IMG/VR virus record: IMGVR_UViG_3300021387_000189
Coordinates: 1 to 64,000 of that record
Origin: a virus
Lineage: Duplodnaviria > Caudoviricetes
Length of the DNA: 64,000 nucleotides
Reading direction: 5' to 3' (one strand)
Shown here: one piece after another, positions 57 to 146 of the stretch
Layout: every line of letters begins with the position of its first letter
How positions within the stretch are numbered: position 1 is the first letter of the stretch
The notes under the pieces: generated by a model
The model's database searches: none
The model's input: the letters and a program-made list of their open reading frames with translations, nothing else
Told to the model about the DNA's origin: nothing
Made by a program: the position numbers and the translations under genes

Positions 57-146
57 TGGTGGATCAAAGGGGACTCAAACCCCAATTGGCATCACGGCTT
101 TTCCGACTCTGTCCGTGTGGAGATTCCAGCTACTCATGCATGACCC
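57..146 (-). ncRNA. tRNA-like RNA with G3:U70 acceptor stem, encoded CCA and a 15-nt anticodon-position loop
   Basis: GGGTCA/TGATCC-A-CCA acceptor; T arm GGGG-TTTGAGT-CCCC; stem CACGG/CCGTG encloses ACAGAGTCGGAAAAG. Confidence 0.65.

Follow-up and report, generated by a model that had tools for sequence, protein, structure and literature searches.

Element A, a 90-nt tRNA-shaped element in the window (positions 1-64,000 of a 94.7-kb IMG/VR record, G000, about 38% complete by CheckV), is interpreted with moderate confidence as a functional gene for a conserved, non-decoding tRNA mimic, predicted to accept alanine, that belongs to a small family found in Lak-like rumen megaphages. Three homologues were found, all in Lak-like rumen megaphage contigs. 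Since they carry the same marks, with compensatory changes among them, and the G3:U70 pair was otherwise confined to alanine tRNAs, A is considered more than a chance resemblance. A second, unrelated-looking family, represented by element B, is built on the same principle.

Anatomy and genome setting of element A

The window has about 40% G+C, and a dense minus-strand tRNA cluster occupies positions 1-6100. Eight ordinary tRNAs were called there by ARAGORN and four were above threshold by Rfam, where several of the cluster tRNAs score poorly. Near the cluster, a Phage_base_V domain (Pfam; a baseplate-spike-type OB domain) and a 5'-3' exonuclease domain are encoded. The ORFs flanking A gave nothing tRNA-related in Pfam or PHROGs, and the adjoining 142-aa ORF was found to be without relatives in IMG/VR. 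Since the contig ends 56 nt downstream of A, the element could be one domain of something longer.

The original prediction had placed G1-C72, G2-C71, G3:U70, A73 and an encoded CCA within 57-146, which is correct when the element is read on the minus strand (Table 1). The acceptor continues with U4-A69, C5-G68 and A6-U67 and ends in a U7.U66 mismatch. With this 6-bp acceptor plus U.U, a D arm containing GG and a T arm, A has the parts of a tRNA cloverleaf. Across the family, the D stem has 3-4 bp and the loop AGYUGG, and the T stem has 4 bp and the loop UUNRANU. The D arm is bounded by linkers of 4 and 4 nt in the window and of 1 and 9 nt in the L188 copy. The canonical 7-nt anticodon loop, with U33 and a purine at 37, is absent, the loop being 15 nt long in the window and 14 nt in the three homologues. 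A 15-nt loop without the U33-NNN-R37 pattern had thus been correctly described, though a U-CGG-A string does lie mid-loop, 7 nt in and outside the canonical 7-nt frame.

Table 1. Coordinates of elements A and B, the neighbouring tRNA-Ala and the homologues of A (window positions unless a locus is named).
Feature	Position	Strand	Description
Element A	57..146	minus	90-nt tRNA-shaped gene, encoded CCA included; read 146->57
A, acceptor 5' strand	140..146	minus	GGGUCAU (G1, G2, G3); pairs with 61-67
A, D arm	122..135	minus	4-bp stem GAGU/AAUC with one G.A; loop AGCUGG; by eye
A, anticodon-position arm	93..117	minus	5-bp CACGG/CCGUG (113-117 with 93-97); 15-nt loop 98-112
A, variable region	85..92	minus	8 nt and identical in window and L107; fewer nt in L087 and L188
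A, T arm	68..84	minus	4-bp GGGG/CCCC flanked by U.U; T loop UUUGAGU
A, acceptor 3' strand	61-67	minus	UUGAUCC; U70 at 63, A73 at 60, CCA at 57-59
Element B	1449..1588	minus	140-nt structured RNA; acceptor GGGCUAU/GUAGUCC, G3:U70, A73
Decoding tRNA-Ala(UGC)	1654..1726	minus	ARAGORN and Rfam calls; directly upstream of B
A homologue, L107	4287->4199		85.6% identity to window copy
A homologue, L087	1601-1687		Rumen metagenome contig
A homologue, L188	921-1007		Contig of rumen MAG

Standard tools did not recognize the element. A was not called by ARAGORN, even with introns allowed, with overlaps or at thresholds of 80-90%, and Rfam gave no tRNA or tmRNA match at E<=10, whether 6 kb or the 146 nt alone were searched. 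The L188 copy scored 16.5 bits against RF00005, where the cut-off is 29. The single-sequence minimum-energy fold of A is not the cloverleaf and is no better than that of shuffles (z = -0.06), so that the support for A is comparative and not energetic. Because of its U.U mismatches, at 7:66 and 49:65, A could be recognized less well by RNase P, EF-Tu or AlaRS.

Both flanks of A (window 1-56 and 147-193, minus) are also conserved in a related contig, G021. The upstream flank is the A/T-rich ATTTTTAGTT, and the downstream one consists of UCUG and a hairpin.

Conservation, the alanine mark and a second family

Related loci were collected via a 219-aa protein encoded at 2014-2673, which led to contigs of phages from rumen and gut, measuring up to 410-474 kb. 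Model R1, built from the sequence of A, found it in loci L107, L087 and L188; over 22 whole related virus records, A was detected by R1 only in G021. This 99-kb IMG/VR contig, which contains L107, represents about 18% of its genome and is the only large related fragment sharing A. The tRNA cluster of L188 is Lak-like and contains a CUA suppressor tRNA, as in Lak phages. An exact 24-mer of A had no match in IMG/VR, and a 16-mer had 47 matches there, chance coding matches except for L107. Gapped patterns gave nothing but chance matches in IMG/VR, and one true member, L188, in genome_contigs.

When the whole 95-kb record was compared with the whole of G021 by blastn, only seven segments aligned. 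The highest were the three tRNA-shaped elements, A, B and 2744-2858, with 73-77% identity including flanks; the other four were coding, at 56-67%, and the remaining coding DNA was unalignable. A and B are conserved better than the surrounding protein genes. The high conservation of A relative to coding DNA, together with its compensatory changes, indicates strong purifying selection.

G1-C72, G2-C71, G3:U70, U4-A69 and A73 are kept in all four members of family A, while two-sided changes affect 5:68, 6:67 and two pairs of the T stem. Of the alignment cells in stems, 98% are paired, versus 34-53% after a shift of the 3' partners by 1-3 columns. RNAalifold, unaided, recovered the helices of the acceptor, the anticodon position and the T arm. 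The D stems, aligned by eye, are GAGU/AAUC in the window, GAUU/AAUC in L107, GCUA/UAGC in L188 and ACUA/UAGC in L087. Two of their pairs are compensatory between the subtypes (GAKU/AAUC versus RCUA/UAGC, also by eye), and the loop AGYUGG is kept. Since the family comprises no more than four known sequences, from two subtypes, its covariation statistics are thin. The CACGG/CCGUG stem is identical in all four members save for one A.C in L087; since it never varies otherwise, it contributes no covariation support. The loop that it closes has a common core of roughly A-Y-N-K-A-(G)-U-(C)-G-G-R-W-A-A-G. In the T loop, U54, U55 and A58 are kept and position 56 is U, A or C. CCA is encoded only in the window and L107 copies, with CAA in L087 and L188.

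The specificity of the alanine mark was evaluated with 281 distinct canonical tRNAs called by ARAGORN in the window and in the related loci. G3:U70 was found in 16 of the 17 tRNA-Ala and in none of the 264 other tRNAs. The 17th is the tRNA-Ala(UGC) of the window itself, which scores under the Rfam cut-off. To obtain a regular acceptor, it must be read from 1726, with one U of the 3' strand bulged out; by eye, G3:U70 is then present here too, a pair hidden by the ARAGORN register. It is an established rule that AlaRS recognizes its substrates by G3:U70, A73 and G2:C71 of the acceptor helix, regardless of the anticodon (PMC9976931). By this rule, A and B should accept alanine once CCA is present. 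Loss of G3:U70 in homologues would have spoken against the original prediction; the pair is conserved in four of four members of A and in four of four of B. Since it is fixed while adjacent pairs co-vary, the G.U pair is under selection as such.

Element B, read 1588->1449, does have the G3:U70/A73 ends attributed to it earlier; CCA is not encoded. Homologues with about 77-79% identity were found in L027, L034 and L107. G1-C72, G2-C71 and A73 are invariant throughout family B, and pairs 4:69, 5:68 and 7:66 co-vary. RNAalifold predicted 39 pairs for the family, 11 of them with compensatory changes. Of a tRNA, B retains the acceptor stem and a T-loop-like motif, GUUCRAAUCC, and nothing else, the rest being four or five hairpins. 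The order tRNA-Ala, B, tRNA-Thr of the window is kept in L027 and L034.

An 8-nt leader, AAACAACU (window 1589-1596), directly precedes G1 of B in all four phages and is a candidate signal for processing or for a start. A similar sequence, GACAACU, forms the 5' strand of another element of the cluster, at 2750-2969.

Further tRNA-shaped elements were observed in the cluster, all on the minus strand. A tRNA-Met(CAU) frame (GGACCUG...CAGGUCC-A) at 3179-3749 carries, after the anticodon, a 495-nt insert that holds another T-arm-like motif; no group I intron was found there by Rfam. Five frames with perfect 7-bp acceptors and good T arms (2750-2969, 4276-4406, 4488-4601, 4918-5058 and 5359-5448) measure 90-220 nt in total, and none of the five has G3:U70. 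G021 shares the 3' part of the first (2744-2858) as a conserved segment, immediately upstream of the G021 copy of B. At 164-424, a tRNA-Pro(UGG) and about 140 nt upstream of it are 78-82% identical to L034 4856-5112 and L031 1026-1228. Since this conservation reaches well past the tRNA-Pro, the region is probably another structured RNA or a composite gene.

In relatives, further G1G2G3...U70C71C72-A73 elements were noted at L034 2139-2205, L026 4596-4660 and L015 1595-1705. They are 65-67 nt and 111 nt long, the shorter ones without an anticodon arm, and had no homologues among the related loci. On the minus strand of L107, at about 3925-4065 (L107rc 4572-4712), an outer tRNA frame GGGGGAG...CUCCCCC encloses, in its anticodon region, a second hairpin with a T arm, a nested construct matching the pattern of a tRNA inside a tRNA intron described for Lak phages.

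Proposed function and competing explanations

On the comparative evidence, A folds as a cloverleaf whose acceptor/T-arm helix is normal and whose D arm contains GG. The place of the anticodon loop is taken by the nearly invariant 5-bp stem and a 14-15-nt loop lacking the canonical U33-NNN-R37 frame, and the full alanine identity set (G1-C72, G2-C71, G3:U70, A73) is maintained by purifying selection. On the AlaRS rule, A would be excised from the tRNA-cluster transcript like a tRNA, ending in CCA, and would be charged with alanine by the host AlaRS, for which the acceptor stem counts and the anticodon does not. The charged molecule would be unable to decode. Its conserved lower arm is probably a handle for a specific partner. 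As to its role, the first-ranked candidate is a competitor or decoy in host tRNA-Ala or tmRNA pathways, with AlaRS, EF-Tu, SmpB or tRNA-directed defence nucleases as potential targets, and the second is a donor that would supply alanine to a non-ribosomal transferase.

Phage tRNA clusters are usually viewed as a codon supply or as anti-defence spare parts. A and B keep only the part of a tRNA read by AlaRS, RNase P, the CCA enzyme and EF-Tu, the decoding end having been lost or replaced. More tentatively, and with rather low confidence, Lak-like megaphages may carry at least two unrelated families of alanine-charged, non-decoding mimics (A and B) as dedicated effectors. Such effectors might act on host trans-translation, by shutting it down or taking its place, might sequester AlaRS or EF-Tu, might counter tRNA-directed defences or might serve a putative tRNA-dependent alanyl transferase, and these aminoacylated decoy RNAs would then be a new class of phage counter-measure. 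If charged, A and B would be natural aminoacylated non-decoding RNAs outside tmRNA, and would give a handle on the purpose of the tRNA look-alikes and introns of megaphages. No description of alanine-marked, anticodon-less RNA families was found in the literature searched.

A mini-tmRNA had also been suggested, and this idea stands in part. As a TLD-only mini-tmRNA, A (and B) would bind SmpB for untagged ribosome rescue or for SmpB titration, the latter blocking trans-translation in the host, as proposed for the RNA of mycobacteriophage DS6A (PMC4131195, PMC11915505). G3:U70 and A73 are as in tmRNA, and the DS6A outline is similar (acceptor, 5-bp stem, 20-nt loop, T arm). Huge phages are known to carry tmRNA and SmpB (PMC7162821), and this clade does invest in trans-translation. 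In relatives, the corresponding tRNA cluster includes true tmRNAs adjacent to the gene for the 219-aa protein: standard ones in L008, L013, L023, L029, L030 and L094, and permuted ones in L015 and L022. Several of them have Bacteroidota-like tags ending in AA, and as a positive control the tmRNAs of the clade scored 50-84 bits against the tmRNA model. G004, a 410-kb relative that is 97% complete, encodes both SmpB (290618-291046, L155; 182 bits) and a standard tmRNA (23125-23454, L156; 84 bits). No tmRNA above cut-off was found in G000, G021 or the 83%-complete G020.

Other results do not support the idea. In the Infernal search that had been proposed as a check, A had no match to the tmRNA models at E<=10, whereas the DS6A control reached 43.2 bits; neither A nor B matched RF00023 or RF04321. 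A differs from the tRNA-like domain of tmRNA in having a genuine D stem as well as an anticodon-type stem. The GG..UYGAC D-loop signature is not evident by eye in the window and L107 copies, though a GG..CUGAC string is present in the D region of L087 and L188. B, in turn, shows no similarity to the tmRNAs of the clade. A tag-encoding partner, smpB and alaS were not found in the 94.7-kb fragment, which samples only about 38% of the genome, and smpB is also absent from G021 (18%). SmpB is supplied by the host. Given the missing model match, the paired, co-varying D stem and the signature that is not evident, A was not assigned to the tmRNA family, and the TLD-only reading is regarded as unlikely. 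A tmRNA-like or SmpB-decoy function of A is possible but unsupported. A permuted-tmRNA call by ARAGORN at 57-498 appeared only at the 80% threshold, among 15 spurious calls, and was rejected.

A distinctly less probable explanation is that A is an unusual decoding tRNA whose anticodon stem is lengthened by 2-3 bp through non-canonical pairs, leaving a 7-8-nt loop with a proline-type CGG or UGG and a purine at 37; such a long-armed tRNA would serve in recoding, frameshifting or the insertion of Ala at proline codons. The Y-G-G-R core of the loop, kept in all four members, could be a cryptic proline-type anticodon, and classical +1 frameshift suppressors are proline tRNAs with eight-membered loops. 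RNAalifold does add three in-loop pairs (C-G or U.G in 3/3 aligned sequences, U-A in 2/3 and U-A in 2/3), while those of L188 are by eye C-G, U-A and G.A. The extra pairs would leave a 7-nt loop around CGG or UGG in L107 and L087, and L107 would show a textbook A-U-CGG-G-A loop. However, in the window the extension consists of C-G, A.A and G.A and the loop has 8 nt, and U33 is replaced by A or G in L087 and L188. In addition, a stem with 3 bp in excess would not be expected to fit between the decoding and peptidyl-transferase centres, a proline anticodon with alanine identity would mistranslate, and the D-arm linkers are abnormal in both the window and L188.

Still less credit is given to A as an intron-bearing tRNA of the "enigmatic intron" kind reported in Lak phages (PMC6784885), from which removal of about 8 nt would restore a normal tRNA. 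Genes with clear inserts do occur in this cluster, as in the tRNA-Met frame with its 495-nt insert, and the tRNA-Ala(UGC) of G021 has an 86-nt insert. The extra length in A, however, is merely 7-8 nt. When the loops were examined by hand, no single excision produced a canonical loop with the same anticodon in the four members; the alanine anticodon (NGC) occurs nowhere in the loop, and ARAGORN -i gave no call.

The remaining possibility, a decaying tRNA pseudogene or a host tRNA or tmRNA 3' end kept as an attachment site, is disfavoured and has the least weight: several cluster tRNAs do score poorly, and the singleton 65-67-nt G3:U70 elements of relatives could be decay products, but A is among the best-conserved DNA common to the window record and G021, has compensatory changes and retains both halves, paired. 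The attachment-site version was dropped since the 3' half of A was found in no bacterial genome among 185,579 species representatives. An antisense guide was also considered and rejected, with no target of the A loop in the 94.7-kb fragment.

Comparison with known systems

The reading of A as a predicted alanine-accepting, non-decoding mimic can be set against four known kinds of RNA. The nearest in outline is the TLD-only tmRNA of DS6A; such molecules inhibit tmRNA and were proposed to interfere with tmRNA-SmpB (PMC4131195, PMC11915505). The DS6A RNA, which lacks annotation in its GenBank record, was located at JN698994 28478-28557 (L166), in the gap between gp33 and gp34. Like A, it is phage-encoded, about 80-90 nt long, has G3:U70 and A73 without a tag reading frame, and combines an acceptor/T-arm helix with a 5-bp stem closed by a large loop. 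In contrast to A, it is recognized by the Rfam tmRNA model, and its D region aligns to the unpaired D-loop analogue of that model, ending in CGAC, where A has a paired D stem. A also differs in its location in the tRNA cluster of a Bacteroidota-type megaphage.

Compared with tRNA-Ala and the AlaRS minihelix, A has all the acceptor-stem determinants, and they are conserved. Unlike tRNA-Ala, it is without an NGC anticodon and a 7-nt loop, its D-arm linkers are abnormal, and it has the two U.U mismatches described above.

Lak megaphages have tRNAs with "enigmatic introns" (Devoto et al. 2019, PMC6784885), and these share with A the phage lineage, the genomic setting and a tRNA frame that is enlarged at its anticodon end. 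Removal of the extra 7-8 nt of A, however, restores no tRNA, and the Lak paper mentions neither alanine identity nor anticodon-less RNAs.

The species I and II RNAs of T4 are co-transcribed with eight T4 tRNAs, from the tRNA-cluster transcript (PMC2330249). They resemble A as small, stable, non-decoding RNAs inside a phage tRNA cluster, and they are matured from a tRNA precursor, as would be expected for A. They have no known function and are not known to carry alanine identity. Taken together, A and B are a variant among the phage RNAs already represented by the stable RNAs of tRNA clusters, the TLD-only tmRNA and the tRNA look-alikes of Lak phages.
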